Positions 2,234 through 28,935 of a stretch of 34,240 bases of DNA are shown here, one piece after another. The notes under the pieces were generated by a model. The model did no database searches. It saw nothing but the letters and a program-made list of their open reading frames with translations, and was not told the origin of the DNA. This DNA is from Solirubrobacteraceae bacterium. GTDB lineage: Bacteria; Actinomycetota; Thermoleophilia; Solirubrobacterales; Solirubrobacteraceae. Position numbers and translations under genes: made by a program. Each line of letters begins with the position of its first letter. Position 1 is the stretch's first letter. Location of the stretch: the NCBI GenBank assembly GCA_033855575.1, contig JAWVFY010000309.1, positions 1 to 34,240 on the forward strand. Direction: 5' to 3'.

Positions 2234-2252
2234 GAGTGTCTCCCTCGTGTTG

Positions 2253-3443: not shown

Positions 3444-3455
3444 CCCCCGCACCCC

Positions 3456-4628
<1,173 letters not shown>

Positions 4629-4656
4629 GAGAACCTCGCAGGAAGTCGGACTGCTG

Positions 4657-4690
4657 CAATATACATATCGGACGTCCGTCTTGTATATTG
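4657..4690. promoter_or_regulatory. 34-bp palindrome: candidate TetR operator overlapping divergent promoters
   Basis: CAATATACA-TAT-CGGACGTCCG-TCT-TGTATATTG. The 9-bp arms are perfectly inverted (4657-4665 and 4682-4690) and the central 10-bp CGGACGTCCG is a perfect palindrome. This is the only AT-rich patch in the region. Each arm carries TATATT on its outward-reading strand (4684-4689 on +, 4658-4663 on -), and TATACA sits 18 nt upstream of it. Confidence 0.55.
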
Positions 4691-4698
4691 TCGCCACG

Positions 4699-5328
4699 AT
4701 GGCGGTCATGCCGGCCCACCGCACACAGGAGGAGCGCCGTGCCGAGACGCGCGGCAAGATCCTGGACGCGACGATCCGCTCGCTGCTCGAGAACGGCTAC
4801 GCGCAGACGACGACGCGCGCGGTCGCCGCGCTGGCGGGCGTCTCGCCCGGCGCGATGGCGCACTACTTCCCCCACCGGGTCGACCTCGTGGCCGCCGCGA
4901 TGGAGCAGCTCGTCGAGCGGCGCATCGCCGCCTGGCGCGAGGCGGCCGGCGATCTGCCCGCCGACGCCTCCGAGCGCATCCCCGCGCTGCTCGATCACGT
5001 CTGGCGCGACTTCAACGGTCTGACGTTCCCGGTCTTCATCAAGCTCTGGGCCGCGGCCGCGGACGACCCCGAGCTCTACGAGCGGCTCGCCGAGAGCGAG
5101 GAGCGCATCGCCCGCTCGATCACCGAGCTCGCGGTCGGCGCGTTCCGGGAGCTCGACGCGCCCGCGGGCTGGGAGGGGCGGCTTCTCGTCACGCTCGCCG
5201 CGATGCGCGGGCTGGCGCTGACCGAGCACTTCGAGCCGCGGACGCGCAGGCGGCCGGATCCGTGGCCGATGGCGCGCGCAGCGCTGCTGGAAGGCCTCGG
5301 CGGACGACCGGCGCGCCGGAGGATCTGA
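4699..5328 (+). CDS. TetR-family transcriptional regulator
   Basis: The HTH region is RGKILDATIRSLLENGYAQTTTRAVAALAGVSPGAMAHYFPHRVDL. The start is taken at ATG 4699 (MAVMPAHRT), with ATG 4708 as an alternative. Both lie 10-19 nt downstream of the TATATT box, so the mRNA would be leaderless or nearly so. The ORF-track start at 4603 would read through the operator region. Confidence 0.85.
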   Translation: MAVMPAHRTQEERRAETRGKILDATIRSLLENGYAQTTTRAVAALAGVSPGAMAHYFPHRVDLVAAAMEQLVERRIAAWREAAGDLPADASERIPALLDHVWRDFNGLTFPVFIKLWAAAADDPELYERLAESEERIARSITELAVGAFRELDAPAGWEGRLLVTLAAMRGLALTEHFEPRTRRRPDPWPMARAALLEGLGGRPARRRI

Positions 5329-5358
5329 GCAGCAACACTGAAGTCGGGAGGGGTACGG

Positions 5359-13693: not shown

Positions 13694-15259
13694 TCACCGC
13701 GTCGGCGCAGGGGGCGGCCGGCGCGCGAGCCGCATGCCCTGGGCCTGGGCACGGCCGAGCACCGCGGGCGCCAGGAGCAGCAGGCTGTGGCCCAGGAAGC
13801 GGCGGCGATAGGCGCTTTGGAGCCGCGCCAGGACGACGTGACGGCGCCGGCTGACCCATTGGTTGACGTCGATGACCGCCGGCCGGGAGGCGAGGATCTG
13901 GTCGGCGAAGCCACGGAGGCCGCCCGGCGTGTGCTTGGCGACATACGCGTCGAAGCCCGAGTTGAGGTAGACGAACCGGCTGGGGTTGCGCCGGTGGGTG
14001 AACACGAGAACCGCTGGGTTGCCGAGCGTCCAGATGGTCCCTCTGGGGCCGGCCAGGCGGCTCAAGCGGTCGGCCGTGGCCTGCTGCTTGGGACGAAGCA
14101 GCTCGTGGCTGCCCGCGGCGGTCGAGTAGTCGTGCCAGGTGAGCAGGGCGAGCGCAGCCATGGCGACGACCCCGAGGCCTGCTGCGAGGTGCCGCACCCG
14201 GCCCAGCGGCACGGCCTTCACCACGAGGCCGAGCGCGCCGCCGATGCCCAGCGCCGCGTACGGCAGCAGTGGGAACACGTCGGGATAGCCCTGGAAGTCG
14301 GAGGCAGTGAAGATGGCGACCACCAACCCGGAGCCGGCCACCGCCACGACGAGGGGGTCCTTCAGCGAGGCGCGCCGACGCGCGACCTGCCAGGCGATGA
14401 GGGCGGGCAGCAGCACGAGGCCGCCCCACAGCAGCACGCGAGTGTCGCCGTAGTAGCGGTCCACCGTCGACGTGATGACGTGCAGGCGATGGCTGAACGT
14501 CTCCGGGTCGCGCTCGACCCCGGTGAAGGGAAACACGATCATGCCGTCCACCAGGTGGCTGAGCGACCCCGCGGCGAGGTAGTAGGCGAACGTCACCACG
14601 ACCGGCGTGAGCACTCCGGCGATCGCGCGCAGGGCGGATCGGGCGCGCGCCCCGGCGTCGCATCCGAACACGGCTGCCAGCACCGCGACGACGGAGTAGC
14701 CCCCCAGCGGCTGCCACACGAGCAACGCCAGGCCGGCCAGCACCCCCCCGGTGAACCATCGTCGCCGGAGGAGGATCGTCATCGAGGCCACGGCGAAGAA
14801 GATGCCCGGGGTCTTGGGGTCGGGACCACCGATGGCGTCCACGGCGAAGCCTCTGAAGGAGACGAACGTCACGGCGGCAGCCATGCCGGCCAGTTGTGAC
14901 TCCCAGGCCCGCGCGGCCAGCAGGTAGACGCCGACCGCGGTCCCGCAGGCGAAGGCCAGGAACAGCAGCCGGATCGCGGTGAGGTCGTTGAAATCGATGA
15001 GCGACGCCACCCAGACCGCCACGCCGCCCAGCGCGGACGACAGCGGGCCCTTGGCGTCGAAGATGCTCGTGTAGAACGGCACGCCGTGCGCCCATTGCTG
15101 CGCGCCGTACGCGCAGATGGCCTCGTCCCGGCTGAGCAGGTCGTCCAAACTGAAGCGCGTGTAGAGGAGGACCGCGAGGAGCAGCGCGAGCGCGGCGAGC
15201 GCCCATGGAACGAAACGGCTCGCGCGGCTGGATGGCAAGACGCCGACGATAATGGACAA
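13694..15259 (-). CDS. Polytopic membrane protein, GT-C-fold (ArnT/PMT-like) glycosyltransferase candidate
   Basis: A 521-aa protein with many hydrophobic segments. It has an acidic first loop (FSLDDLLSRDEA) and a soluble C-terminal tail. The first codon is TTG at 15257-15259, and the exact start is uncertain. The family assignment rests on architecture only. Confidence 0.6.
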   Translation of the reverse strand: MSIIVGVLPSSRASRFVPWALAALALLLAVLLYTRFSLDDLLSRDEAICAYGAQQWAHGVPFYTSIFDAKGPLSSALGGVAVWVASLIDFNDLTAIRLLFLAFACGTAVGVYLLAARAWESQLAGMAAAVTFVSFRGFAVDAIGGPDPKTPGIFFAVASMTILLRRRWFTGGVLAGLALLVWQPLGGYSVVAVLAAVFGCDAGARARSALRAIAGVLTPVVVTFAYYLAAGSLSHLVDGMIVFPFTGVERDPETFSHRLHVITSTVDRYYGDTRVLLWGGLVLLPALIAWQVARRRASLKDPLVVAVAGSGLVVAIFTASDFQGYPDVFPLLPYAALGIGGALGLVVKAVPLGRVRHLAAGLGVVAMAALALLTWHDYSTAAGSHELLRPKQQATADRLSRLAGPRGTIWTLGNPAVLVFTHRRNPSRFVYLNSGFDAYVAKHTPGGLRGFADQILASRPAVIDVNQWVSRRRHVVLARLQSAYRRRFLGHSLLLLAPAVLGRAQAQGMRLARRPPPAPTR

Positions 15260-15292: not shown

Positions 15293-17017
15293 TCAGGGTC
15301 TCTCCATGTCCGCCGCGTCCAGGTAGGCGCGCCACCCCCCGTGGGACGTCACGTCGATGGCGCCGTGTGTCGCGTAGCCCTCGCACACGAAGCCCGCGGC
15401 GTCTTCGCCGTCCTCGAGCGTGACGCGACCGATCCCCAGCGGGGCGGGTACGCCCTCGAGGAGCTCTCCGACCGCTGCCGGTGCAAGCTCCCAGACCTCG
15501 GCCTCCACGGCAGCTCCGCCGTGGATGGTTCGCACGAGCCCGGGCCGCGGTACGCCGGCGCCGGGGAGGGCGAACAGCCGGTAGACGGGCGCCGTTCGCG
15601 CACGCCGCACCAGCCGCGCGCCGCGCGAGGTCAGCTCGCCGTTGAGCGGCAGACCGCTCATATGCGCTCCGACGACAACCAGGCGCGTGGCTCCAGAGGA
15701 CGCGGGCCGAGGCTCGCCGCGCCACTCGGCGGCGAGGCTCATCAGCCGGTGGTCGTGGAAGGCCGGAGCGATCAGGCTGACCCCACCCGGGAGGCCGTCG
15801 GGGCGGCGGGGGCCGGGAACCGCGATCGCCGCGAGGTCGAGGAGGTTGACGAAGTTCGTGAAGCGGCCGAGGCGGGCGTTGACGCCCACCGGATCTGCCG
15901 CGACCTCGTCCAGGCGGGGGTGCCCGGGCGTGGTGGGAAGCAGGAGCGCGTCGGCCTGCTCCCAGATCGGGCAGGCGGCGCGGTGCAGCTCAGCGAGGCG
16001 GTGCTGGCCGGCGAACACATCGACGGCGCGCAGGCCCGCACCTGCCCGGACGATGGCCGCGACGGTGGGATCCAGCCCGTCAGGCTCGGCGGCCACAATG
16101 TCACCGAGATCGGCCGTCCGCTCGGAGACCCACACGTCGTAGAGCAGGTCGGCGGCCTCCAGGAGCGCTCCGATGTCCACGCGCACCAGCTCCCAGGTCG
16201 CGGCCGCTTCCCGGCATGCCTGCTCCCAGGCCGCGGCGGCGTCGGCCTCCTGGAAGATGAGCTGTCCATCGAGCGGAACGGCGACGCGGCCATGCCGCGG
16301 CGAGGTGGGAACCCGCGGCGCGCGGCTCCACGCATCGGCCGGGTCGAAGGCCGCGGCAACCGCGAGAACGGCCGCGGCATCTGCCACCGACCGGGCCAGG
16401 ACCGAGACGCAGTCCAGCCCGCGACAGGCGGGCAGGACCCCGCGATTCGAGACCAGTCCTCGTGTCGGCTTGATCCCCACGAGCTCGTTGAACGCGGCAG
16501 GGACCCGCCCCGAGCCAGCGGTGTCGGTCCCGAGCGCGAACATGACGTGCCCGAGCGCCACCGCCACGCCGGAGCCCGAGCTCGAGCCGCCGGGGACACG
16601 CTCGCCGTCGAACACGCAGGCCGGAGTCCCGTAGGGCGATCGCGTGCCGACCAGGCCGGTGGCGAACTGGTCCATGTTGGTCTTTCCGACGAGCAGAGCC
16701 CCGGCGCCCAGGAGACGCTCCACGACGGCCGCGTCACGGTCGGCCTCGCGGGCGAACCCCGGGCACGCCGCGGTCGTCGGGAGGCCGCCGACGTCGATGT
16801 TGTCCTTGACGGCGAAGGGGATCCCGTAGAGCGGCAGGCCTGGGTCTGCCGCGTCCAGGGAGCGGGCCGCGGCGCGGAGCGCGTGGGGGTCAACCAGGGT
16901 GATCCAGGCGGGGCCCGGGTCCTCGCCGAGGCGGTCGAGCACCTCGCCGGCAACCTCGCTGGGGCGACTGTGGCCGGCCCGGTAGTCGGCCAGCAGGTCG
17001 GCGATCGATCCGATCAC
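15293..17017 (-). CDS. Allophanate hydrolase (amidase-signature domain plus AtzF-type C-terminal domain)
   Basis: A 574-aa protein starting VIGSIADLLADYRAG. It has the amidase-signature blocks GIPFAVKDNIDVGGLPTTAACP and GGSSSGSGVAVALG, and a C-terminal domain RLVVVGAHMSGLPLNGEL..YRLFALPG. The GTG at 17015-17017 overlaps the TGA of the upstream gene (GTGA). The ORF-track N-terminal extension to 17575 is Arg-rich nonsense. Confidence 0.9.
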   Translation of the reverse strand: MIGSIADLLADYRAGHSRPSEVAGEVLDRLGEDPGPAWITLVDPHALRAAARSLDAADPGLPLYGIPFAVKDNIDVGGLPTTAACPGFAREADRDAAVVERLLGAGALLVGKTNMDQFATGLVGTRSPYGTPACVFDGERVPGGSSSGSGVAVALGHVMFALGTDTAGSGRVPAAFNELVGIKPTRGLVSNRGVLPACRGLDCVSVLARSVADAAAVLAVAAAFDPADAWSRAPRVPTSPRHGRVAVPLDGQLIFQEADAAAAWEQACREAAATWELVRVDIGALLEAADLLYDVWVSERTADLGDIVAAEPDGLDPTVAAIVRAGAGLRAVDVFAGQHRLAELHRAACPIWEQADALLLPTTPGHPRLDEVAADPVGVNARLGRFTNFVNLLDLAAIAVPGPRRPDGLPGGVSLIAPAFHDHRLMSLAAEWRGEPRPASSGATRLVVVGAHMSGLPLNGELTSRGARLVRRARTAPVYRLFALPGAGVPRPGLVRTIHGGAAVEAEVWELAPAAVGELLEGVPAPLGIGRVTLEDGEDAAGFVCEGYATHGAIDVTSHGGWRAYLDAADMERP

Positions 17018-18891
17018 CGCGAGCCGGCCGCCGCCCACGCGGCCCGCTCCTGCGCGAACGCGGCCTCGCGCTGGGAGCGGAACTCGGCGATCTCCGGCTC
17101 GTGGGCGGCCAGGAACCGCTCGTGCTCGAGCAGCGAGAAGCTGGCCGGCTCGATCACGGGTTCCCAGGTGCCTGCGGCGCTGCGCGCGCGCAGCTCCTCG
17201 AGCTCGGCTTCCTCGACGAGCTCGAACCGCAGCTGATCGAAGTGGCGCAACAACCACGGCGGCTCGCTCCGATCGAGCCAGACGGGGACGGTGCGGCCGA
17301 CCAGCTGATAGCCGCCGGGTCCCTCCATGCCGTAGACGCAGAGGAACGCTCCGCCGATCCCCACCGCGTTGGCGGGCGTCCAGGTCCGCGCCGGGTTGTA
17401 CTTCGTGGTCACCAGGCGATGACGGGGGTCCAGGGGTACGGCCACGGGAGCGCCGAGATAGACGTCGCCGAGCCCGAGCACGAGGTAGGACGCGGCAAGG
17501 ACGATCTGCTGGACCTCCTCTTCGGAGTCCAGGCCGTTGATGCGGCGGATGAAGTCGATGTTGTCCGGACACCACGGCGCGTCAGAGCGGACGGAGGTCG
17601 CGTAGCGCTCCACGGCCAGCATCGCCTGAGAGTGGCGCCACGCCAATGGCAGCGTGATGACACGACTGCTCACCTCCAGGGTCTCGGGCAAGGGAAGCGT
17701 CGCCTCGGTGTCGGTCACGAGATCGAGGAGTCGACGCGTCGGCAGGAGGCCGGGGTCGTGCTGGATGTGCAGCGAGCGCACGCCCGGCGTCAGATCGAAC
17801 AACCCCGGCACCCTCAACGTCCGCAGCGCCTCCTGCAACGCGTGGGCGCGGACACGCGAACGAAGCTCGAGCCCGGACTCCCCGAACTCCACGAGCAACG
17901 CCGCCTCCCCCGCCCGCCGATAGGTGACCGGCCCTCCCGGGGAGTCCCCCCGAGCATCGAGGAGCGGGGACAGCCCGGGACCCGCGATCGCCCGGCGATG
18001 GTCGTCGACCGCCACGAGCCGGACCTCGTCGCCGGCGCGCACCTGCCCGAGCTGCCAACGATCTTCAGCCACCACCTGACCGATCGCGACGAACCCCCCG
18101 AGGCTCGGACCGTCGGGACCGACGACAACGGCCATGTCCCCCGCCAGCATCACCGTGCCGACGCCGTAGGCGCTGTCGAGGATGTTCGACGGGTGCAGGC
18201 CCGCGTCACCGCCATCGGAGCGTGCCCAATCGGGTACCGGACCGGTCAGGCGCACTCCGGCACGGTCGGACTGGTGGTGCACGGTCCAGCCGGCGGTGAA
18301 GAGCTCCTCGAGCCCTTCGGGCGTCAGGAAGTCCGGGGCGCCGTGCGGGCCGGGCACGACGCGCAGGTTCCAGGCATTGCCCATCGGCACCGGGGGCTCA
18401 GGCTCCCCGGAACCCGCGGACCCGGGCTCCCCGAACGCCAGCGTGTCGCCCTTGCGCAACGCCCCACCGCCGAGACCGGCCGGCGCGAACACCGCCTGGC
18501 TGCCCATCGCCAACGCGGTGTCCACGCCTCCCGCGACGGCCAGGTAGGCGCGCATGCCAACGCTCCGGATCACGCCGAGCTTGACCAGTGCGCCCGCCGG
18601 CACGTCGATCGCCGACCACTGCGGTGCCGGCGTGCCATCGACCTCGACGATCAGCGGCGCCCCGGTCACCGCGATCCGAGCGCCGTCGGGAAACCGCAGC
18701 CGCGGTCCTGTCACCGTGACCTCCAGCCCGGCCGATTCGTCCGCGTTGCCGACGAGTCGGTTGGCCGTCCGCAGCGAGCGATCATCCATCGGTCCCGACG
18801 GCGGAACGCCGACCTCCCAGAGTCCCAGACGTCCCGGCAAGGCCTGCACCGTGGTCAGCGTCCCGGCCGATACGACCTCGGCGGCGCTCAC
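17014..18891 (-). CDS. Stand-alone carboxyltransferase (CT) domain of urea/guanidine carboxylase: KipA/PxpC-like A-B subdomains fused to KipI/PxpB-like C-D subdomains, with no biotin carboxylase and no BCCP
   Basis: A 625-aa protein. The N-terminal half, GTLTTVQALPGRLGLWEVGVPPSGPMDDRSLRTANRLVGN, is KipA/AHS2-like. The C-terminal half, with PWCPDNIDFIRRINGL and GIGGAFLCVYGMEGPGGYQLVGRT, is KipI/AHS1-like as in urea carboxylase. The GTG start at 18889-18891 overlaps the stop of the upstream DUF1989 gene, so there is no room for a BC domain. The protein ends ..AQERAAWAAAGSR without a biotinyl-lysine (AMKM-type) motif. Confidence 0.85.
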   Translation of the reverse strand: MSAAEVVSAGTLTTVQALPGRLGLWEVGVPPSGPMDDRSLRTANRLVGNADESAGLEVTVTGPRLRFPDGARIAVTGAPLIVEVDGTPAPQWSAIDVPAGALVKLGVIRSVGMRAYLAVAGGVDTALAMGSQAVFAPAGLGGGALRKGDTLAFGEPGSAGSGEPEPPVPMGNAWNLRVVPGPHGAPDFLTPEGLEELFTAGWTVHHQSDRAGVRLTGPVPDWARSDGGDAGLHPSNILDSAYGVGTVMLAGDMAVVVGPDGPSLGGFVAIGQVVAEDRWQLGQVRAGDEVRLVAVDDHRRAIAGPGLSPLLDARGDSPGGPVTYRRAGEAALLVEFGESGLELRSRVRAHALQEALRTLRVPGLFDLTPGVRSLHIQHDPGLLPTRRLLDLVTDTEATLPLPETLEVSSRVITLPLAWRHSQAMLAVERYATSVRSDAPWCPDNIDFIRRINGLDSEEEVQQIVLAASYLVLGLGDVYLGAPVAVPLDPRHRLVTTKYNPARTWTPANAVGIGGAFLCVYGMEGPGGYQLVGRTVPVWLDRSEPPWLLRHFDQLRFELVEEAELEELRARSAAGTWEPVIEPASFSLLEHERFLAAHEPEIAEFRSQREAAFAQERAAWAAAGSR

Positions 18892-19532
18892 GCGGCGGGC
18901 GTGACCACCAGCCGGATCGGCGTGGGGTCATAGCCGTTGCACGGGTTGTTCAACTGCGGGCAGTTGGAGATCAGGACCAGCGTGTCTCGCTGGGCCAGCA
19001 GGTCGAGATGCTTGCCGGGTGCCGAGATGCCGTCGGCGAACTCGAGCCCGCCGTCGGGGGTGAGCGGCACGTTCATGAAGAAGTTCACGTTGTGGCCGAG
19101 GTCGCGCTTGCTCAGCCCTCGGCCCCACACCAGCGCCTGGGCCAGGAACGTGTTGCGACACGCGTGCATGTGACGCGTGTGCTCGCCGTAGCGGACGACG
19201 TTGCTCTCCTGGGAGCACGCGCCACCCAGCGTGTCGTGACGCCCGCAGGTGTCCTCGACGATCGTCACCAGCGGCAATCCATCGACCGCCAGCAGCGACG
19301 AGCCGATCGTCAGGTAGGCGGAGCCCTGCTCTCGAAGCGTATCCACGGCGCTGTAGCGGTTGGCGTAGTCATGCGCGTCGAAGAACAGGGTGTCGACGGC
19401 CTGATTGCCATGCAGGTCGACGATCCGCAGCGTCTCGCCGGCATGCAGTTCGCCGATCCATCCGTCTCCGGCGGAGACCTCGAGCTCAAGCTTCGCCCGG
19501 GTGCCGGCGCCCTGCCTCTCGACCGTGTTCAC
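18888..19532 (-). CDS. DUF1989 / urea-carboxylase-associated family protein (carboxyguanidine deiminase subunit-like)
   Basis: A 214-aa protein starting VNTVERQGAG. It contains LRIVDLHGNQAVDTLFFDAHD and ISNCPQLNNPCNGYDPTPIRL. The GTG at 19530-19532 overlaps the upstream stop (GTGA), and GGAGG lies 9 nt upstream. Confidence 0.85.
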   Translation of the reverse strand: MNTVERQGAGTRAKLELEVSAGDGWIGELHAGETLRIVDLHGNQAVDTLFFDAHDYANRYSAVDTLREQGSAYLTIGSSLLAVDGLPLVTIVEDTCGRHDTLGGACSQESNVVRYGEHTRHMHACRNTFLAQALVWGRGLSKRDLGHNVNFFMNVPLTPDGGLEFADGISAPGKHLDLLAQRDTLVLISNCPQLNNPCNGYDPTPIRLVVTPAA

Positions 19533-20236
19533 GTGAGCGCAACCTCCAACTCGGTGGCCGCGAATCCGCGCTCGTTCTCCGGACAGGCCAGGCGCACCGG
19601 ATCGTCGGGGGCCGCCGGGCGGACGTCCGCGATGGCCAGCCTGACGGGCCGAGGCCGCCACGCGGGCTCGGGGTCGAGAGGATGTGGCACGGCGCAGGCC
19701 ACGACCAGCGTGTCCATCTCGAAGCGCAGCCGGACGTGCGCACCGGCGGGCGAGCTGTCCGAGACGAACGAGAGCGCACCGTCATCGCCGACCGCGATCC
19801 TGGTGAAGAAGTTGACGTTGGCGACGAGGTCGCGTCGGCCCAGCTCGTGCTTGGCCAGCTCGACGAGAAGCCCCTCACGGGCGCTGCGGCGCCACGCGTT
19901 GTGGCCCTCCTGGTAGCTCATCGTGCCCCAGCGTCCTGCGACGTGACCGGGCGTCGCGTGGCCGGTGATGGTGTCGTGCCAGCCGCACGTGTCCTCGACG
20001 ACCGAGACCAGCACACGCCCCATGTCGGAGTGGAGCGCCACGCCCTGGGTGATCCGCGAGCAGTGCTGCGCCTTGAGCGTGTCGGGCATGCAGTAGCGCT
20101 CGACCGGTTGATCCGCGCGATAGAAGAGCGCAGAGAGGTTGGCGCCCCCTTCGAGGTCGGTCAGCGTCATCGCCGTGCCACGCCGGCAGACCTGTGACCA
20201 GCTGGCGCCCCCCGGGAGGATCGCATCGACGATCAC
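19529..20236 (-). CDS. DUF1989 / urea-carboxylase-associated family protein (second carboxyguanidine deiminase subunit-like paralog)
   Basis: A 235-aa protein starting VIVDAILPGGASWSQV. It contains LTDLEGGANLSALFYRAD and VVEDTCGWHDT, which parallels IVEDTCGRHDT in the paralog. The GTG at 20234-20236 overlaps the stop of the MBL gene (GTGA), and GGAGG lies upstream. Confidence 0.85.
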   Translation of the reverse strand: MIVDAILPGGASWSQVCRRGTAMTLTDLEGGANLSALFYRADQPVERYCMPDTLKAQHCSRITQGVALHSDMGRVLVSVVEDTCGWHDTITGHATPGHVAGRWGTMSYQEGHNAWRRSAREGLLVELAKHELGRRDLVANVNFFTRIAVGDDGALSFVSDSSPAGAHVRLRFEMDTLVVACAVPHPLDPEPAWRPRPVRLAIADVRPAAPDDPVRLACPENERGFAATELEVALT

Positions 20237-21123
20237 GCCGCGACCTCCGATGCCGACCAGTCCACGGGCACGAACACGCTGAAGCCGTCGAACACCGCCT
20301 CGCGCACCTCGCCGCCCACGCAGTCGACCCCCGAACGCAGCGCGACCTCTCCTCCCAGCACGCGCGCGAACGCGTCGGCCTGCAGGGCCAGAAAGGCCGG
20401 TGGGACCTCCGTGCGCATGAAGTGCGAGCAGAACACACGATCCCATCGCTCCGACCGCGCCGCCAGCCCGGACAGCGACGCCTGGAGGGCGCCCAGGTCG
20501 GAGTCGGGCAACTGGGCATAGACCGGTCCGGTGTTGACGGTGTCGCCTCCGAACAGCATGCCCTCGCCCATGAGGTCCAGGCACACGCAGTCCGGCGAGT
20601 GGCCCGGGGTGTGGATGACGTCGAGCCGGCGGCCGCCGAGATCGATCGAGTCACCGTCCTCGATCACGCCCGTCGCCACGAACCCGTCGATGTGCCAGGC
20701 CGAACGGACCTCGGGCGTCAGCCGGCGCACGGTGTGCTGGTCTGCGATCAGGTGGAAATAGCGGTCGTCGAGCTGCTGGTAGTGCCCGAAGCAGTCCTCT
20801 TGGCCCGTCGCGTACTGGAGGTAGGCGTCCAGCAGCTCCGTGGGGACAGCCCGGGCCAGCCCATCCACCCCGAGCGGGTGGATCAGGATCTCCTCGAACT
20901 CGTCGTCGCCACCGATGTGATCGAAGTGGTGGTGCGTGTGGACGACGGTGACCGGCCGGTCCGTCAGAGCCTCGACGACGGGGCGGATCGCAGCAAAGCC
21001 GCAGCCCGTGTCGATCAGCGCAGCTCTGTTCTCACCGGCCACGAGCCAGGAGCAGACGTGCCCAGGCTCGGTGAGCTGCCACACACCCTCTGCGAGCTCC
21101 GTCACGGAGAACCACTCACGCAT
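20233..21123 (-). CDS. Metallo-beta-lactamase-fold hydrolase
   Basis: A 296-aa protein. HTHHHFDHIGG is the HxHxDH zinc motif, and TPGHSPD follows later. The ATG lies 3 nt downstream of the stop of the permease gene. Confidence 0.85.
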   Translation of the reverse strand: MREWFSVTELAEGVWQLTEPGHVCSWLVAGENRAALIDTGCGFAAIRPVVEALTDRPVTVVHTHHHFDHIGGDDEFEEILIHPLGVDGLARAVPTELLDAYLQYATGQEDCFGHYQQLDDRYFHLIADQHTVRRLTPEVRSAWHIDGFVATGVIEDGDSIDLGGRRLDVIHTPGHSPDCVCLDLMGEGMLFGGDTVNTGPVYAQLPDSDLGALQASLSGLAARSERWDRVFCSHFMRTEVPPAFLALQADAFARVLGGEVALRSGVDCVGGEVREAVFDGFSVFVPVDWSASEVAA

Positions 21124-21126
21124 CGA

Positions 21127-22128
21127 TCAGACCGTCCTGATGCGCGGGTCCGCCCACGCCTGCGCGACGTCGACGAGGAAGTTGACGACCACGTAGATCG
21201 TCCCGAGAAGCAGCGTCGCGCCGGTGATCGCCGGGAAGTCGGAGTAGGCGATCGACTGGTCGATGTAGAGGCCCAGTCCCGGCCACGCGAAGATCGACTC
21301 CACCACGACGATGCCTCCAAGCAGAAGCCCGAACTGCAGGCCCGCCATCGTGAGCGCAGGGCCGGCGGCGTTGCGCAGAGCATGGCGCAGCAGCACGGTG
21401 CGCTCCCGAAGGCCCTTCGACCGCGCTGTGCGAACGTAGTCCTCGCGCATCACCGTCGTCAGCGACGTGCTCAGCGTCCGCGCGATGGCCAGCGCGGGCA
21501 GCAGGGCCAGCGTCAGACCCGGCATCAGCAGGTGGCCCAACGCGCTGAAGAACACGTTCGGCTCGACGTGCAGCAGCGAGTCGATCAGCAGGAAGCGCGT
21601 CGGGCCGGTCGGCAGCACGAGGGTGTCGGTCACGCGCCCCGAGGCGGGCAGCAGATGCAGGCCCGAGTAGAGGACGAGGATCAGGATCAGGCCGAACAGG
21701 AAGCTCGGCACCGACGCCCCGCCGATGAGCGCGCGCCGGATCCAGCGGCCCGCCCGCCCGCCGCCCGCCAGCAGGAGCCCCAGCCCGAGACCGATCACGC
21801 CCGCCAGGAAGGCCGCGAACAGCGCCAGCTCCATGGTCGCCGGCGCGAAGGTGCCGAGATCGTCGACCACCGGGTTACGTGTGCGAAGGGAGCTCTGGAG
21901 GTCGCCGTGCAGCAGGCGGCCGGCGAACCGCACGAAGCGCTCGGGAAGCGGCCTGTCGTAGCCGAGCTCGTGCCGCTTGGCCGCGACGACCTTCGGTGAG
22001 GCGCTCGCGCCGACGACGGCTCGGGCCGGGTCGGCCGGCACCACGACCTCCAGCACGAAGGTGATGACCGCCAGCCCCGCCAACACGGCGACGAGGCCCG
22101 CGAACCGGCGTCCGAGGAGACCGGCCAT
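21127..22128 (-). CDS. ABC transporter permease, DppB/OppB-like
   Basis: A 333-aa protein starting MAGLLGRRFAGLVAVLAGLAVITFVL. It has multiple TM segments and the EAA-loop region REDYVRTARSKGL. The ATG at 22126-22128 overlaps the SBP stop by 1 nt (TGATG). Confidence 0.85.
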   Translation of the reverse strand: MAGLLGRRFAGLVAVLAGLAVITFVLEVVVPADPARAVVGASASPKVVAAKRHELGYDRPLPERFVRFAGRLLHGDLQSSLRTRNPVVDDLGTFAPATMELALFAAFLAGVIGLGLGLLLAGGGRAGRWIRRALIGGASVPSFLFGLILILVLYSGLHLLPASGRVTDTLVLPTGPTRFLLIDSLLHVEPNVFFSALGHLLMPGLTLALLPALAIARTLSTSLTTVMREDYVRTARSKGLRERTVLLRHALRNAAGPALTMAGLQFGLLLGGIVVVESIFAWPGLGLYIDQSIAYSDFPAITGATLLLGTIYVVVNFLVDVAQAWADPRIRTV

Positions 22129-23702
22129 CAGCCGGTCCCTCGCAGCGCCGCCAGGTCGACCGTCCAGGGATAGGCAGGCACCGCCTGCACGTTGGTCAGC
22201 TTGTTGCTCAGGACGAAGACGTTCTTGACGTCGCCGAGGAAGAACATCTCGTTGCTGTCGAGCACGCGCTGGCCGACCTGCGAGTACAGCGCGTCGGCCT
22301 TGGCCTTCGGCGCGCTCACTGCCTGGTCGAGCAGCTTGTCGATCGTCGGGTCCTTGAAGCCCAGGAAGTCCAGCCCTCCCGAGGAGTAGAAGAGGATCCG
22401 CGCCCACGTGTCGGGGTCGGCGGCGTCGGGGGTGTTGGTGACGAGCAGGAGGTCCGGGGCGTGCGCCAGATCCTTGACGTACCCGTAGACCTGCGGCAGC
22501 TGGACCTCCTTGAGCGTGACGTCGTAGCCCGCGGCCGAGAGCTGGGCCTGCAGCAGCTCGCTGGCTCTGCGCTGGACACCTGACTCGTCGGCGGTGTAGG
22601 CCAGCGTGATCGACCTCGTCTTCGCCTTGGCGCTGATCGCCTTCGCCGCCGCGGTGTTGGGCTTGTAGGGCAGGCCCGGCTGACTCGGCAGCAGGCCGGG
22701 CGGATAGGCGCCGGTGGACGCGGTGGCGGTGCCCGCGTACGCCTGCGAGACGAGCTGGCCGACGTCGAAGGTCGATCGCAGACCCGCGCGGATGGCCGGA
22801 TCCGAGAACGGAGCCCGGTTGGTGTTGACGTAGAGCAGCAGCCGCAGGTAGGAGCTCTCGCGCTTGACGGTCAGGTTGGACGGCAGCGAGCTGAGCTCCG
22901 AGGCGGGGAACGAGTGCAGGATCGCGTCAAGGTCGCCGTTCTGCAGCTCGAGGCGCTGCGTCCCGATGTCCGGCGTGATCTTGAAGATGATCTTCTGGAA
23001 GTAGGGAGCCGTTCCCCAGTAGCCGGGTGCGCGTGTCAGCACGTACTGGCGTCCACGGTCGAACGCCGTGATCTCATAGGGGCCGGTGCCGTCCTCGTGG
23101 GTGCGCAGCCAGGTCTGCGCGTGGTCTGATCCCGCGTGCTGCGTGATCGCGCCGGGCCCGATGATCTTGGGGCCCCAGCTCGAGGCCATGTAGGCCAGGA
23201 ACGGGTTGACCGGATGCTTGAGCTTGATGACGAGCTCGAGCGGCTTCGGCGTCAGCATGCTCTTGACCGGCTCAAGCATGTAGGAGGGTGCCTGGGCGAC
23301 CGCGAGACGTCGCTCGAAGCTTGCCTTGACCGCTGTCGACGTCAGCTTGCTGCCGTCATGGAAGCGAACACCGGGTCGCAGGTGGAACGTGTAGGTCAGC
23401 CGGTCAGGCGAGACCGTCCAGGACGCGGCCAGGCTGCCGACGATCCTCGACGAGCCCGGCGCGTACTTCAGCAGGCCGTCGTAGCTGTTGAGGATCACCG
23501 AGTTGCCCTCGATGTCGTAGAAGACGTCGGGATCGGGCACCGACATGTCGGCGAGATACGGGATGCGCAGCACGGCGTTGCTCGCGCCGGACGCGCCGCC
23601 CGCCGCTGTTCCGCCGACGCTGCTGGACGTGCTCTTTGCGCCGCACCCTGCTGCGAGCAGGGCCGCCAGGGTGAGCACGGCCAGGATCGAACGGTGCCTC
23701 AT
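22128..23702 (-). CDS. ABC transporter substrate-binding lipoprotein, family 5 (peptide/nickel/opine type)
   Basis: A 524-aa protein starting MRHRSILAVLTLAALLAAGCGA, a lipoprotein-type signal. Family-5 SBP blocks are SLAASWTVSPDRLTYTFHLRPGVRFHDGSKLT and GTGPYEI. The ATG at 23700-23702 overlaps the upstream stop (ATGA), and AAGGAA lies upstream. Confidence 0.9.
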   Translation of the reverse strand: MRHRSILAVLTLAALLAAGCGAKSTSSSVGGTAAGGASGASNAVLRIPYLADMSVPDPDVFYDIEGNSVILNSYDGLLKYAPGSSRIVGSLAASWTVSPDRLTYTFHLRPGVRFHDGSKLTSTAVKASFERRLAVAQAPSYMLEPVKSMLTPKPLELVIKLKHPVNPFLAYMASSWGPKIIGPGAITQHAGSDHAQTWLRTHEDGTGPYEITAFDRGRQYVLTRAPGYWGTAPYFQKIIFKITPDIGTQRLELQNGDLDAILHSFPASELSSLPSNLTVKRESSYLRLLLYVNTNRAPFSDPAIRAGLRSTFDVGQLVSQAYAGTATASTGAYPPGLLPSQPGLPYKPNTAAAKAISAKAKTRSITLAYTADESGVQRRASELLQAQLSAAGYDVTLKEVQLPQVYGYVKDLAHAPDLLLVTNTPDAADPDTWARILFYSSGGLDFLGFKDPTIDKLLDQAVSAPKAKADALYSQVGQRVLDSNEMFFLGDVKNVFVLSNKLTNVQAVPAYPWTVDLAALRGTG

Positions 23703-24601
23703 CGGGTGTTCCTTTGGTCGAGGTGACGGTTGATGGCGTCGCCCATGACGTTCGCGGTGAACGCAAGCAGCGCGACGGCCACGGCAGGTGCGAGCGGGAC
23801 CCACGGATGGCCGAAGAGGTAGTCCAGGCCCCGCGCGCTCATCGCCCCGAGCTCAGGTGCCGGCGCCGGCGCGCCCAGGCCGATGAACGACAGGGCGGCC
23901 AGCGCAAGGATCAGGTTGCCGACGTCCAGGGACATCGTGACGACCACCGGCGCGACGGCGCCCGGCAGGAGGTGGCGCAGGACCAGCCGTCTGCGGCTGA
24001 CGCCCGCCAGCCGCGCCGCCTCGGCGTGCGGCCGGACGGCGAGCGCGCGGACCTCGGCGCGAACGATCCGCGCGTACCAGGGCCACCACACGATGCTCAG
24101 CGCGAGCAATGTGTGAAACAGGCTGGGGCCCATCGAGGCCACGATGGCGATCGCCAAGACCGGCGCCGGCAGCGAGATGAACAGGTCGGTCAAGCGCATC
24201 AGGACCGTGTCGACGATGCCGCCCAGCGCGCCGGCCAGCGCTCCCACGAGCGCACCGAACGCCGCGCCGAGCGAGATGACGCCCAGCGCGGCGAGCCACG
24301 AGGTCCGCAGGCCGATCAGCACCCTCGACAGCACGTCGCGGCCGATCTCGTCGGTCCCCAGGAGGTTGTGCACCGAGAGCCCGTGCAACGGACCGGCAGC
24401 CGTGATCTGCAGCGCACTGTCAGGCGCCAGCAGCGGCGCGATCAAGATCACCAGCGTCAGCACCGCGACGGGTAGAAGGGCGCGGCGCAGGCCCGCGGGG
24501 CTCACGCTGCCGGACGGCGTGCCGCGACGCCGCACGAACGCGCCGACGGCTCCACGCGCCACGGCCGGTGCCGCGTCAGACGTCGTGGGCGCCATCGCCA
24601 T
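23699..24601 (-). CDS. ABC transporter permease, DppC/OppC-like
   Basis: A 300-aa protein starting MAMAPTTSD. It contains LLGTDEIGRDVLSRVLIG, typical of OppC/DppC, and has several TM segments. The ATG at 24599-24601 overlaps the ATPase stop by 1 nt. Confidence 0.85.
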   Translation of the reverse strand: MAMAPTTSDAAPAVARGAVGAFVRRRGTPSGSVSPAGLRRALLPVAVLTLVILIAPLLAPDSALQITAAGPLHGLSVHNLLGTDEIGRDVLSRVLIGLRTSWLAALGVISLGAAFGALVGALAGALGGIVDTVLMRLTDLFISLPAPVLAIAIVASMGPSLFHTLLALSIVWWPWYARIVRAEVRALAVRPHAEAARLAGVSRRRLVLRHLLPGAVAPVVVTMSLDVGNLILALAALSFIGLGAPAPAPELGAMSARGLDYLFGHPWVPLAPAVAVALLAFTANVMGDAINRHLDQRNTR

Positions 24602-26409
24602 CAGGCCGCCTCCACCCCGGGGACCGCGGCAAGGAGCTCGCACGTGTACGGATGGGTGGGCTGCGCGAAGATCTGCTCGACGGTGCCGCGCTCGACCACA
24701 CGGCCGCGCCGCATGACGATCACGTCATCGGCGACCGCCCGCGCGGCCGCCAGGTCATGGGTGACGAAGAGCAGGGCGATGCCGAGCGTCGCGCGCAGGT
24801 GGCAGAGCAGGTTGAGGACCTGGGCCGCCAGCGACACGTCCAGGGCCGACACCGGCTCGTCGCACGCCAGAAGAGCCGGGGGCACCGCGATCGCCCGGGC
24901 GATCGCGGCCCGCTGGCGCTGGCCGCCCGAGAGCCGCCGCGGCATCATCGCGGCCTGCTCCGCCGACAGGCCGACGGCCTCGAAGGCCGCGGCGACGCGT
25001 GCAGGTCGCTCCGTGGCCGGGACGCCGACCGCGGCGAGCCTCTCGGCAACCTGCTCTCCCACCGACATCCATGGTGTCAACGATGCGCCGGCGTCTTGGA
25101 AGATCATCTGCGGCGAGGCGCCGGGACCGAGCCGCATCGAGCCCGCTGTCGGATCCAGCAACCCCACGATCATCCGCAGCAGCGTGCTCTTGCCCGAGCC
25201 GGACTCGCCGACGACTGCCACCGACCCGCCGGGCGGGACGACGAGGTCGATCGCGTCGACGGCGCGCAGCGGCTCTGACGCTGATGCGAACGGATGGCGC
25301 CGGGGACGGGCGAACTCCCGTACGAGTCCCGTGACGGTCAGGGCGGGCTCGAGAGCCGTGCCCGGGATGGATGCGGGAGCCTCCTGAGCCGGCGGGCGAA
25401 GGAGCATGAGGTCGGGCCGCCGCATGTGCGGTCCGCCCTCGGGCCAGCGTGAGAGGACTCCGGGGTGGTGGCACTCGTCGCGCCGGGCGGCCGCGAGGTG
25501 GACGGGCACCGCCAGTGCGCAGCTGGCGTCGCTGGCTGGGCAGCGCGGCGCGAACGCGCAGCCCGCCATCGGCCGGCGCGGGTCGGGAGGCCGACCGGGC
25601 AACGTGGGCAGGTCACCGCCGGCGACCGTGCCGTGCAGGCTCGGGCGGCTGGCCAGCAGCCCGACGGTGTATGGGTGGCGCGCGCCGGCCAGGACCTCGG
25701 GGGTGGTCCCGGTCTCGACGATCCGGCCTGCGTAGGCGACCGCGATCCGGTCACAGATGCGCGCGGCGACACCCAGGTCGTGGGTGACCAGCAGCAGCGA
25801 CACGCCGCGATCGCGCGCGGCGGCCGCGAGCAGGTCGAGCACCTTGGCCTGGACCGTGACGTCGAGCGCGGTCGTCGGCTCGTCGGCGATGATCAGCCGC
25901 GGAGCCCGGGCCAGTGCCATGGCGATCATCACGCGCTGGCGCAGGCCGCCCGACAGCTCGTGCGGATAGGCCCGCGCCTTGACGTGCGGCTCCGGGATGC
26001 CGGTCGATCCAAGCAGCTCGCAGACCGCCTGGGTCGACAGTCCGTCGCCTGCCTCGTCCACCTGTCGCCCCACGCGCATGGTCGGGTTCAGCGAAGCCAT
26101 CGGATCCTGGAAGACCGCGCCGACGTAGGAGCCCCGTCGGGCGCGGCGAGCGTCCTCACCGGCGGACACCATGTCCTCGCCATCGAGACGGACCTCGCCC
26201 CGGATGGTCGGAGCGGGATCGCGCGGGAGGAGGCCGAGCGCGGTCAGTCCGAGCACGCTCTTGCCAGATCCCGACTCGCCGACCAGGCCGAGGACCTCCC
26301 CCTCGGCGATCGCCAACGTCGCTCCACGCAGGGCGTGGACGTCGCCGTCACGAGCAGCGAACGTGACGTGCAGGTCGCGCACGTCGAGAACGGGGACCGG
26401 CCGAGTCAA
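24601..26409 (-). CDS. Fused double-NBD ABC ATPase (DppD-DppF type)
   Basis: A 602-aa protein. It has two Walker A motifs (both GESGSGKS), two signature motifs (LSGGLRQR and LSGGQRQR) and two HPYT oligopeptide-type C-terminal motifs. The TTG start at 26407-26409 overlaps the upstream TGA (TTGA). Confidence 0.9.
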   Translation of the reverse strand: MTRPVPVLDVRDLHVTFAARDGDVHALRGATLAIAEGEVLGLVGESGSGKSVLGLTALGLLPRDPAPTIRGEVRLDGEDMVSAGEDARRARRGSYVGAVFQDPMASLNPTMRVGRQVDEAGDGLSTQAVCELLGSTGIPEPHVKARAYPHELSGGLRQRVMIAMALARAPRLIIADEPTTALDVTVQAKVLDLLAAAARDRGVSLLLVTHDLGVAARICDRIAVAYAGRIVETGTTPEVLAGARHPYTVGLLASRPSLHGTVAGGDLPTLPGRPPDPRRPMAGCAFAPRCPASDASCALAVPVHLAAARRDECHHPGVLSRWPEGGPHMRRPDLMLLRPPAQEAPASIPGTALEPALTVTGLVREFARPRRHPFASASEPLRAVDAIDLVVPPGGSVAVVGESGSGKSTLLRMIVGLLDPTAGSMRLGPGASPQMIFQDAGASLTPWMSVGEQVAERLAAVGVPATERPARVAAAFEAVGLSAEQAAMMPRRLSGGQRQRAAIARAIAVPPALLACDEPVSALDVSLAAQVLNLLCHLRATLGIALLFVTHDLAAARAVADDVIVMRRGRVVERGTVEQIFAQPTHPYTCELLAAVPGVEAA

Positions 26410-27011
26410 ACGCCGACCCTGGCGGGCTCTGCGGCGCCGAGGGCACTGAGCAGCTCGGCGGTCGTGACGAGGCAGTCGCGCTGCAGGTAGCGCATCGCCC
26501 GCAGAGACGCCTCGTGCGCCTCCGGCGAGGAGCCGCCGGTGGCGTCAGTGACGACCTTGCAGTGGTAGTCGTGTTGATGGGCGTCGGCGAACGTGTAGTG
26601 GACGCAGACGTCGGTCAGACCGCCGAGAAGCACGACGGTCTCGATGCCCAGCGACTTCAGGACGAGCTCGAGCTCGGTGGCGAAGAACGCCGAATAGCGG
26701 CGCTTGCGGATGTGGTACTCGTCGGCCCGCGGCTCGAGTCCGCTCGCGAGCTCGGTCAGCTCGTCGCCTTCGAGGCAGTGCACGGTCTCGCTGCCGTCGA
26801 GCTCGCGGCCGAAGTCGAGCAGCGTGCGCTTGTGGACCTCCTGAATGAAGATCGGCGGGACCGCCGCCTCACGGGCCGCCGCCAGGATCTGGCGTGCTCG
26901 ATCGACCCGCTCGGGCCCACCGGGCATCAGCGGGATGCCGCACTCGACATCGAGCTCGGCGGACCGCTGGACATCCACCAGGATGAGAGCCGTGTTGCCG
27001 ATCAGTTCCAA
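26406..27011 (-). CDS. Isochorismatase-like cysteine hydrolase (amidohydrolase)
   Basis: A 201-aa protein. Candidates for the D-K-C triad are ALILVDVQ (Asp), HIRKRRYSAF (Lys) and GGLTDVCVHYT (Cys). The TTG start at 27009-27011 lies 6 nt after AAGGAG (27018-27023). It is the first gene after the riboswitch. Confidence 0.85.
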   Translation of the reverse strand: MELIGNTALILVDVQRSAELDVECGIPLMPGGPERVDRARQILAAAREAAVPPIFIQEVHKRTLLDFGRELDGSETVHCLEGDELTELASGLEPRADEYHIRKRRYSAFFATELELVLKSLGIETVVLLGGLTDVCVHYTFADAHQHDYHCKVVTDATGGSSPEAHEASLRAMRYLQRDCLVTTAELLSALGAAEPARVGV

Positions 27012-27023
27012 GCCAAGCTCCTT

Positions 27024-27063
27024 AGAAATCAGAAAAGCCCGGCAGACGTGATGTCTCCCGGGC
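27024..27063 (-). terminator. Intrinsic terminator acting as the riboswitch expression platform
   Basis: The RNA reads GCCCGG-GAGAC-AUCAC-GUCUG-CCGGGC followed by UUUUCUGAUUUCU. The 5' arm (GCCCGG, + strand 27058-27063) is part of the conserved AAAAGCCCGGGAGA 3' end of the aptamer, so the aptamer and the terminator are mutually exclusive. Confidence 0.7.
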
Positions 27064-27165
27064 TTTTATCCCTCCGTGTCAGCGCGGCTATGTCGATGCC
27101 GGCCTGCCCTCTCGGACCAGACCCGCCGGTTGCCCGGCGGCGGAACCCTAGGGCGAACGTCACGA
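27054..27165 (-). promoter_or_regulatory. Guanidine-I (ykkC/yxkD) riboswitch aptamer
   Basis: The minus-strand RNA is CGUUCGCC-CUAGGGUUCCG-CCGCCGG-GCAA-CCGGCGG-GUCU-GGUCCGAGAG-GGCAGGCCGGCAUCGACAUAGCCGCGCUG-ACACGGAGGGAUAAAAGCCCGGGAGA. All three hallmark conserved blocks of the ykkC class are present in the correct order: CUAGGGUUCCG at 27141-27151, GGUCCGAGAG at 27109-27118, and ACACGGAGGGAUAAAAGCCCGGGAGA at 27054-27079. There is also a GNRA-capped P1a hairpin. Confidence 0.88.
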
Positions 27166-28928: not shown

Positions 28929-28935
28929 GCGGCGC

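Follow-up and report, generated by a model that had tools for sequence, protein, structure and literature searches.

There is growing recognition of guanidine as a widespread nitrogen source, and the carboxylase pathway that uses it has been described as strictly biotin- and ATP-dependent, by way of one multidomain enzyme. The canonical operon, as in P. syringae, Raoultella and Klebsiella, encodes guanidine carboxylase, the carboxyguanidine deiminase pair CgdAB, allophanate hydrolase (AH) and an ATP-binding cassette (ABC) importer of the NitT/TauT type, and is associated with guanidine-I/II riboswitches (PMC12186494, PMC11410670). In the guanylurea pathway of Pseudomonas mendocina, an isochorismatase-like hydrolase, GuuH, feeds guanidine carboxylase, CgdAB and AtzF (PMC9800807). 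Here, we analyze a stretch of 34,240 nucleotides from a Solirubrobacteraceae bacterium (contig JAWVFY010000309.1; hereafter, the window, meaning the whole stretch), in which a Guanidine-I riboswitch is followed by an operon of ten minus-strand genes whose carboxylase consists of the carboxyltransferase (CT) domain only. The riboswitch and the gene order, as read from the letters alone in an earlier note on this DNA, were confirmed by Rfam, Pfam and NCBIfam.

Like the canonical operon, the one in the window has a Guanidine-I riboswitch, the gene order CgdA-CgdB-carboxylase-AH and an ABC importer in the same unit. Unlike it, it encodes a carboxylase that has neither the biotin carboxylase (BC) nor the biotin carboxyl carrier protein (BCCP) domain and that carries Met instead of Asp at position 1330 (K. 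lactis numbering), an importer of the Opp/Dpp/Nik type with a family-5 solute-binding protein (SBP), a leading cysteine amidohydrolase and an inserted metallo-beta-lactamase-fold (MBL) hydrolase. In other words, this atypical operon is genuine, and it deviates from the canonical module in precisely the ways given in the earlier note, i.e. in its missing BC and BCCP, its Opp-type importer and its two hydrolases. Its most unusual feature, however, is the family of CT-only proteins that fails the published guanidine-carboxylase signature, rather than the extra hydrolases. The system is new as a variant, namely as an order-wide, riboswitch-controlled CT-only enzyme, while the riboswitch, CgdAB, AH and the gene order were already known. 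A literature search returned nothing that connects guanidine riboswitches with Solirubrobacterales, with CT-only carboxylases or with Opp-type importers, though several key papers lay outside this search.

A carboxylase consisting of the carboxyltransferase domain only

The CT-only protein aligns to the K. lactis urea carboxylase (PDB 3VA7) over residues 477-1123 only, beginning at subdomain A and ending just short of the BCCP domain, and Pfam gives no match to ATP-grasp (BC) or Biotin_lipoyl (BCCP) in it. The urea carboxylase model scores 775 bits on the protein; its TIGR02712 alignment stops at position 1110 of 1201, and the next gene overlaps its stop codon. CT-only homologues form at least 120 clusters at 60-75% identity, with N- and C-termini in common, and the best 120 are all 600-700 aa long and contain the two CT Pfam domains only. 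Identity to the CT domains of full-length guanidine carboxylases is about 50%, to be compared with 52-57% for CgdB and 40-52% for AH; a neighbor-joining tree of the CT domains, which carries no support values, shows only that the clades lie at similar distances from one another (roughly 50% identity).

As judged from the alignment, in K. lactis numbering (an offset of +593, verified on K1605, D1584 and N1330), the equivalents of the catalytic residues Lys1605 (in the motif TTKYNP) and Asp1584 (in GLGDV) are kept in the CT-only protein. The former is the proposed general base in urea carboxylase (PMC5770610), and roles in the carboxylase family have been given for residues 1330 and 1584 (PMC11410670). 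What is more, 193 of the 257 columns that are invariant in six full-length enzymes are kept in the CT-only homologues, where a column counts as kept if present in at least 90% of 40 homologues sampled from 120.

Position 1330 distinguishes guanidine carboxylase (Asp) from urea carboxylase (Asn) (PMC11410670, Methods). Here, the window protein has a methionine, Met248, as do all 120 of 120 close homologues, whereas six of six full-length proteobacterial enzymes have Asp. Beside it, the substitutions H1320L and F1331L are equally invariant, and T1332A is found in 116 of the 120 homologues. Among the fetched CT-only loci (numbered L001 and onwards) that adjoin a pair of DUF1989 genes, the residue is Met in 21, Ile in L012 and Asp in L033 and L034, a count in which the near-duplicate pairs L027/L028 and L033/L034 are each taken twice. 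In L033, the CT-only protein has the complete guanidine-carboxylase signature HDTYDFT, Asp1330 included. A search of a library of 50%-identity representatives, which returned many metagenomic fragments and served only for the survey of residue 1330 and for the choice of L032-L036, gave five Met-type proteins, all of them without a BC-sized N-terminus. A CT-only protein with Ser at 1330 (P0381, L036:2639-5019) adjoins an SSF transporter, a TetR regulator and a 130-aa protein with AH_C only.

These patterns point to an enzyme that is under strong constraint, with a pocket that has been remodelled and made more hydrophobic, and that lacks a residue by which both guanidine and urea carboxylases are defined. 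With BC, BCCP and Asp1330 all missing, the protein lies outside the biotin-dependent guanidine carboxylase family as defined. One could claim that it is simply a decaying remnant of a full-length carboxylase, or an artefact of assembly or gene calling, in an operon that is partly non-functional, and frameshifted CT and AH genes in some loci (L019-L021) from metagenome-assembled genomes (MAGs), of the kind typical of long-read consensus errors, would be in line with such a claim. Yet, the clusters of 600-700 aa with the same termini are at least 120 and independent, the CT start codon overlaps the stop of the upstream gene, the substitutions are clade-specific and invariant (e.g. Met in 120 of 120) and remnants of BC or BCCP are not detectable by tblastn. 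For these reasons, the pseudogene or fragment reading is effectively refuted, and we find it hardly credible. As for L019, L020 and L021 themselves, where the CT and/or AH frames are split into several tblastn segments, the breaks are probably consensus frameshift errors and not pseudogenes.

The CT_A_B and CT_C_D folds without biotin domains are also found in PxpBC of the prokaryotic 5-oxoprolinase. This identity was rejected, since the PxpC and PxpB models give 119 and 45 bits against cutoffs of 500 and 146, respectively, far from the 775 bits of the urea carboxylase model, and the genomic partners are CgdAB and AH; PxpA (LamB_YcsF) had no match among the window open reading frames scanned.

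Recurrence of the operon and its riboswitch leader

Related loci were found by a genome scan with the CT protein as query and one genome per species, and were compared by tblastn with all ten window proteins and E. coli AccC and AccB as probes. The same gene order, at about 60-100% protein identity, recurs behind a Guanidine-I riboswitch in 13 other loci (L001, L003, L005-L008, L013, L019-L021, L024, L027 and L029), which come from Solirubrobacterales MAGs and metagenome contigs, so that the comparative check which the earlier note had called for, i.e. whether the order recurs behind ykkC/Guanidine-I motifs, turned out positive. Nine of these loci, all from Solirubrobacterales MAGs (L003, L005-L008, L013, L019-L021), have the order cysteine hydrolase-ATPase-OppC-SBP-OppB-DUF1989a-DUF1989b-CT at 59-84% protein identity, and L001 has the same gene set minus the cysteine hydrolase; in all ten, the aptamer lies directly upstream (74-84 bits). 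AH comes after CT in L003, L004, L006, L007, L009, L012, L019 and L021. In L001, L005, L008, L013 and L020 it does not, and unrelated genes stand there, in L008, L013 and L020 those for an aldo-keto reductase and a 6PGD.

The MBL gene is an optional member of the operon, lacking in nine others, and was found in none of the loci just named. All ten genes, in the order of the window and with the MBL at the corresponding place, are seen in the metagenome contigs L024, L027, L028 and L029, the last of which is 94-100% identical to the window, while L025 and L026 hold partial versions of the MBL-containing operon; the riboswitch was detected in L024, L027 and L029. A previous impression, gained from the GTDB loci, that the MBL gene was unique to the window was dropped after a search for MBL homologues and look-ups of their contexts. 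The operon thus comes in sub-types, with or without MBL, AH or cysteine hydrolase.

In contrast to these optional members, the DUF1989a-DUF1989b-CT-only triad is found wherever a locus is sufficiently complete, and the DUF1989 pair plus the CT-only carboxylase is, consequently, the invariant core. The triad also occurs in loci without riboswitch, importer or cysteine hydrolase. In L002, genes for an FmdA-like amidase, RidA and an MBL come after it; in L012 (2136-9435, no riboswitch), a GntR/UTRA regulator and an APC permease, whose best match is 'permease, urea carboxylase system' and which takes the importer's place, accompany the DUF1989 pair, the CT-only protein (with Ile at 1330) and AH; and in L032, the triad lies on a short contig. 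A more distant relative with the same gene order is L033 (GCA_000763215.1, JRHI01002046.1, 1-11849; 73.6% GC), at 36-62% protein identity to the window (49% for CT and 62% for the cysteine hydrolase). In L024 (15720-17134) and L002 (4533-5977), the operon is extended by the gene for an FmdA/AmdA-like amidase, which scores far under the formamidase cutoff, and by a RidA-family gene, after AH in the former and after CT in the latter.

The DUF1989 pair and AH all score above their NCBIfam cutoffs, where TIGR03424 and TIGR02713 are equivalog models and TIGR03425 (UAAP1) is a hypothetical-equivalog model. The CgdAB-type pair stands directly upstream of the carboxylase gene, in the order seen in the full-length operons L010 and L014-L018. 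Namely, these proteobacterial loci, which the same genome scan returned, carry DUF1989a-DUF1989b-full-length BC-CT-BCCP, followed by AH sequence in all but L014, and the order DUF1989a-DUF1989b-carboxylase-AH matches that of L015-L018. Since the proteobacterial loci carry BC-CT-BCCP in the very slot held by the CT-only protein, the latter has replaced the full-length enzyme at the same position in the Solirubrobacterales-type loci.

RF00442 is the sole Rfam family above threshold in the window, with one copy, and the features of the leader and of the operon are collected in Table 1. The 5' arm of the terminator, AAAAGCCCGG (27067-27058), is also the 3' end of the aptamer, being the last ten bases of the aptamer region, with GCCCGG common to both, and a U-rich tract comes after the 3' arm, CCGGGCUUUU (27042-27033); the RNAfold energy of the terminator segment in isolation is -25.8 kcal/mol. 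In the 13 related loci, the first gene is preceded by an aptamer that scores 72-85 bits, and the leader design, in which the aptamer overlaps the terminator, is kept in 14 of 14 loci, the window included, with stem sequences that vary and pairing that is retained. The leader is, therefore, expected to act as an ON switch of the usual Guanidine-I kind, where the ligand would stabilize the aptamer at the expense of the terminator. The ligand of ykkC subtype 1 is guanidinium, as opposed to ppGpp or phosphoribosyl pyrophosphate for subtype 2.

Table 1. Features of the riboswitch leader and the operon in the window (protein domains called with Pfam and NCBIfam, RNA families with Rfam)
Feature	Positions	Strand	Evidence
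Guanidine-I riboswitch aptamer	27053-27162	minus	RF00442, 78 bits vs gathering score 63, model positions 1-107 (full)
Expression platform: terminator hairpin and U-rich tail	27024-27067	minus	sequence read, RNAfold
Shine-Dalgarno AAGGAG	27018-27023	minus	6 nt ahead of TTG start of first gene
Isochorismatase-family cysteine amidohydrolase, 201 aa, TTG start at 27011	26406-27011	minus	PF00857, 141 bits
Fused ABC ATPase with two nucleotide-binding domains (NBDs), OppD/OppF-like	24601-26409	minus	two ABC_tran domains and oligo_HPY
OppC/NikC-like permease	23699-24601	minus	BPD_transp_1; NCBIfam Opp2C/NikC-like matches all sub-cutoff
OppC/NikC-like permease, starts	ATG 24601; alternative GTG 24643	minus	
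Family-5 solute-binding lipoprotein, signal sequence LAAGC	22128-23702	minus	SBP_bac_5, 220 bits
OppB/NikB-like permease	21127-22128	minus	BPD_transp_1_N and BPD_transp_1
MBL-fold metallohydrolase, type 1	20233-21123	minus	PF00753
DUF1989 protein, UAAP1/CgdA type	19529-20236	minus	TIGR03425, 290 bits (cutoff 206)
DUF1989 protein, UAAP2/CgdB type	18888-19532	minus	TIGR03424, 304 bits (cutoff 285)
CT-only urea/guanidine carboxylase family member, 625 aa	17014-18891	minus	CT_A_B 268 bits, CT_C_D 132 bits
AH, amidase and AH_C	15293-17017	minus	TIGR02713, 680 bits (cutoff 511); PF01425, PF21986

Eight of the nine gene junctions are stop/start overlaps of 1 or 4 nt, and the remaining one is a gap of 3 nt. 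The ten genes behind the riboswitch thus read as a translationally coupled operon, as tight as sequence alone can show. The flanking genes have no homologue in any related locus compared, and it is for this reason that we take the operon to comprise ten genes. In particular, a 521-aa predicted membrane protein without a Pfam match (13694-15259, minus strand), which begins 33 nt past the AH stop, was considered as an eleventh operon gene and rejected, as it is conserved beside the operon in no other locus. The downstream flank also contains a methyltransferase gene and, further away, a DUF6351 tannase-like protein (8059-10218, plus strand; 702 bits) and, within 52-6720, a TetR regulator, a BNR-repeat protein, an acyl-CoA dehydrogenase, a thiolase-like protein, an SRPBCC cyclase-like protein and an SDR. 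The riboswitch is immediately preceded, on its own strand, by at least four MlaD/Mce-domain genes of a Mce-type lipid uptake operon (27519-34034, minus strand). The window has a GC content of 71%, and its best matches are Solirubrobacterales MAGs, in line with an uncultured Solirubrobacterales-like actinobacterium as its source; none of the Solirubrobacterales matches in the genome collection comes from a cultured isolate.

Carboxybiotin, importer and hydrolases in the proposed route

We propose, with moderate confidence in the model as a whole, that this is a guanidine-inducible nitrogen-salvage operon. Namely, binding of guanidine to the aptamer would let transcription read through the terminator, and the Opp/Nik-type ABC importer would take up guanidine or a small guanidine-yielding compound. 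The CT-only protein would then move CO2 from carboxybiotin onto the substrate, where an unlinked BC-BCCP protein would supply the biotin carrier, the most plausible candidate being an actinobacterial AccA-type alpha subunit. Following this, CgdAB would convert carboxyguanidine to allophanate and NH3, and AH, encoded in the operon or elsewhere in the genome, would convert allophanate to NH3 and CO2. For their part, the cysteine amidohydrolase and the MBL would act as accessory feeders, so that guanylurea-type precursors, such as amide or cyclic guanidine compounds, could enter as well. CgdAB and the CT-only protein occur without the cysteine hydrolase in L001, L002, L012 and L032, i.e. the core is independent of the hydrolases.

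With no biotin-handling domains and no guanidine-recognition residue, the textbook guanidine pathway cannot run here as described. That the CT-only protein is instead served by carboxybiotin in trans, as the full guanidine-salvage model has it, is a proposition that we regard as evenly poised. It is favored because the catalytic residues for carboxyl transfer are retained, and because CgdAB needs carboxyguanidine while L001, L012 and L032 contain no enzyme other than CT that would be able to make it. In addition, the CT-only protein of L033, with its intact signature, should act on guanidine and would, therefore, need an external carboxybiotin carrier. Actinobacteria routinely share AccA-type BC-BCCP subunits among carboxyltransferases. 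A cryo-EM study of 2026 shows the BCCP-biotin of M. smegmatis AccA3 bound by MSMEG_0435-0436, which are CT homologues that stand alone (PMC13012033). Like the window protein, MSMEG_0435/0436 are stand-alone urea-carboxylase CT homologues in an actinobacterium, without a BC or BCCP of their own, and they show that housekeeping BCCP-biotin can dock in trans. Unlike it, they are two separate small proteins that lack key urea-carboxylase residues, have no carboxylase activity and match the window protein weakly (114 bits), whereas the latter has subdomains A-B-C-D fused into one CT domain, shares about 50% identity with true guanidine carboxylases and keeps Lys1605 and Asp1584. A 721-aa protein with CT and Biotin_lipoyl (BCCP) and no BC domain (P0401, L035:2847-5012), near which no BC gene was found in L035, is another split form of the urea-carboxylase family.

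That said, several observations weigh against the guanidine-salvage model. Met1330, together with H1320L, F1331L and T1332A, leaves the published guanidine-carboxylase signature unsatisfied, and the substrate or the chemistry may thus differ from guanidine carboxylation. What is more, tblastn with AccC and AccB found no match anywhere in the 34-kb window and, in about 25 CT-only loci, revealed neither a BC nor a BCCP gene up to 10 kb away, the search having covered these loci. The five riboswitch-led loci in which unrelated genes follow CT in place of AH point in the same direction, as does the fact that family-5 binding proteins normally bind ligands far larger than guanidine.

This last point brings us to the importer, which is composed of a family-5 SBP, two BPD_transp_1 permeases and two NBDs with oligo_HPY, and is thus of the Opp/Dpp/Nik type (PepT family). 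The SBP is far under the cutoff of all NCBIfam equivalogs (the best being NikA, with 114 bits vs 393); its best PDB match, also at 114 bits, is an uncharacterised SBP, and NikA, DppA, GsiB, HbpA and AgaA are all distant. One can argue that the importer simply carries free guanidine for ordinary uptake and assimilation and that the hydrolases are clean-up enzymes for, e.g., urea, biuret or allophanate-like by-products. Such an account would agree with a riboswitch that senses free guanidine, with the minimal operon of L001, which has the same importer (SBP 65% identical) and no hydrolase whatsoever, with the replacement of the importer in L012 by the urea carboxylase-associated APC permease, and with the nine operons from which the MBL is missing. 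It is harder to reconcile with the fact that nearly all operons retain the cysteine hydrolase (65-96% identity) as their first gene, and with the occurrence of the SBP-MBL module outside guanidine loci; moreover, we know of no family-5 SBP that binds a ligand as small as guanidine. On the whole, we consider this account unlikely. Still, because L001 has the importer without hydrolases and L012 swaps the importer for an APC permease, the importer ligand may feed the core enzymes directly. A pair of SBP and MBL genes homologous to those of the window is found outside guanidine operons in L030 (4910-8897), where a GntR/FCD regulator and an EutA/arylmalonate-decarboxylase-like protein are followed by an SBP_bac_5 protein (49% identical to the operon SBP) and an MBL (50%); L030 has no adjacent permease or ATPase genes and no riboswitch.

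The cysteine hydrolase, which is the first gene in 13 of the 14 riboswitch-led operons (window included), has the triad Asp13-Lys103-Cys136, aligned with the motifs of the proven guanylurea hydrolase GuuH of pMET-2. The two proteins share 31% identity (73 bits). Its best NCBIfam match is BiuH (62 bits, cutoff 370), and its PDB matches do not exceed 66 bits: an uncharacterised isochorismatase hydrolase (66), an N-carbamoylsarcosine-amidase-related protein (66) the biuret hydrolase 6XJM (65) and 6XIX (38). Assignment as an orthologue of GuuH or BiuH was rejected on these grounds, the protein being equally distant from other members of the family. In this respect, the locus resembles the P. mendocina pathway in that an isochorismatase-family hydrolase with an alignable Asp-Lys-Cys triad is combined with the CgdAB/AH route, and differs in that the hydrolase is no nearer to GuuH than to biuret hydrolase or uncharacterised isochorismatases; in Pseudomonas, the hydrolase gene is unlinked to the guanidine carboxylase genes, no riboswitch link has been reported and the carboxylase is full length, and the window differs on all these counts. 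Likewise, biuret/cyanuric-acid catabolism (BiuH and AtzF) also joins an isochorismatase-family amidohydrolase and AH in one pathway, but the low BiuH score, the guanidine control and the presence of CgdAB, which biuret catabolism does not need, set the window apart. The closest characterised relatives of the cysteine hydrolase include biuret, triuret and guanylurea hydrolases and N-carbamoylsarcosine amidase, i.e. ureido/carbamoyl amidases, and some automatic names given to its orthologues by the Joint Genome Institute read 'biuret amidohydrolase'. At least 120 orthologue clusters exist at 66-100% identity, and the best 120 gave no contexts outside the operon. On pMET-2 itself (L023, CP098607, 19195-22903), the proven guanylurea hydrolase gene lies within a NitT/TauT-type ABC importer cluster, beside a nucleoside deaminase, an arrangement that, by analogy, parallels the hydrolase and importer of the window.

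The window MBL is distant from every characterised structure. In L033, its slot holds an AiiA-lactonase-like MBL that is unrelated to it and shares 39% identity with the MBL of L002, and two unrelated MBL-fold hydrolases have, in other words, been taken into the operon in different lineages; the swap in L033 looks like a non-orthologous recruitment of a ring-opening or an ester/amide-opening activity. In L031 (7010-8927), which belongs to a Candidatus Dormibacteraeota MAG, a homologue of the window MBL (50%) comes immediately after the gene for a ureohydrolase of the agmatinase family (TIGR01230, above cutoff), with an amino-acid permease gene close by. As far as homology can tell, no role is assignable to the importer, the cysteine hydrolase or the MBL.

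These two hydrolases are central to an alternative that does without biotin, and that we hold only tentatively, as a rather improbable possibility. Namely, a guanylurea-like compound, or an acyl- or cyclic guanidine, would be imported, the MBL would open or trim it and the cysteine amidohydrolase, by taking off the terminal amide, would directly yield carboxyguanidine (or allophanate), whereupon CgdAB and AH would finish the process without ATP-dependent carboxylation; the CT-only protein would be repurposed, e.g. for binding, stabilizing or handing over the labile carboxyguanidine, or for acting on a substituted substrate. The absence of BC and BCCP from all loci searched, the remodelled, more hydrophobic CT pocket with Met or Ile at 1330 and the leading position of the cysteine hydrolase in the riboswitch operons would all be accommodated, as would the ureido amidases, guanylurea hydrolase among them, that are its relatives: in purely chemical terms, hydrolysis of the terminal amide of guanylurea would formally give carboxyguanidine. 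The conserved SBP-MBL pair elsewhere, the recruitment of two unrelated MBLs and the extra genes for an FmdA-like amidase and a RidA protein in L024 and L002 are also in line with this alternative, and the MBL homologue beside an agmatinase-family gene in L031 would fit a larger hydrolysable substrate. At the same time, CgdAB and the CT-only protein are retained without the cysteine hydrolase in L012, L002, L032 and the hydrolase-free L001, the same operon in L033 has a CT-only protein with the full guanidine-carboxylase signature, Lys1605 and Asp1584 are strictly kept, as for a working carboxyltransferase, and the cysteine hydrolase is not specifically related to GuuH, its 31% identity being the same as to other members. 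Unlikely, too, in our estimate, is a route needing no biotin carboxylase in which the Opp importer, the MBL and the amidohydrolase together lead directly from an imported guanylurea-like, acylated or cyclic guanidine to carboxyguanidine or allophanate and the CT-only protein has a new role; in such a route, it could capture or transfer a carboxylated intermediate, or carboxylate a substituted guanidine via a borrowed housekeeping BCCP.

The suggestion of the earlier note that the operon dismantles a larger guanidino or ureido compound is, accordingly, upheld in part. While the SBP-MBL pair outside guanidine operons, the two unrelated MBLs and the ureido-amidase relatives speak for it, the hydrolase-free L001, the APC permease of L012 and the distance of the cysteine hydrolase from GuuH speak against it, and the idea is plausible but unproven.

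Meaning for the Solirubrobacterales and for the urea-carboxylase family

Our results depict an abundant soil actinobacterial order that keeps the guanidine riboswitch, the deiminase and, in many loci, AH, and yet carries a carboxylase of the CT domain only. Since this protein fails the signature that is used to call guanidine carboxylases, surveys of these enzymes such as that of PMC11410670 would miss or misclassify the Solirubrobacterales lineage. What is more, the CT-only enzyme must work in a manner not yet described, be it with a carrier borrowed in trans or with another substrate or chemistry. The cysteine hydrolase, the family-5 importer and the recurrent MBLs point, in addition, to further guanidine-yielding substrates, for which guanylurea-type pollutants and natural cyclic guanidines are candidates. 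If true, either of the new roles for the CT-only protein would represent a new functional class within the CT family of urea carboxylase and would provide a physiological rationale for the docking of CT and BCCP in mycobacteria.

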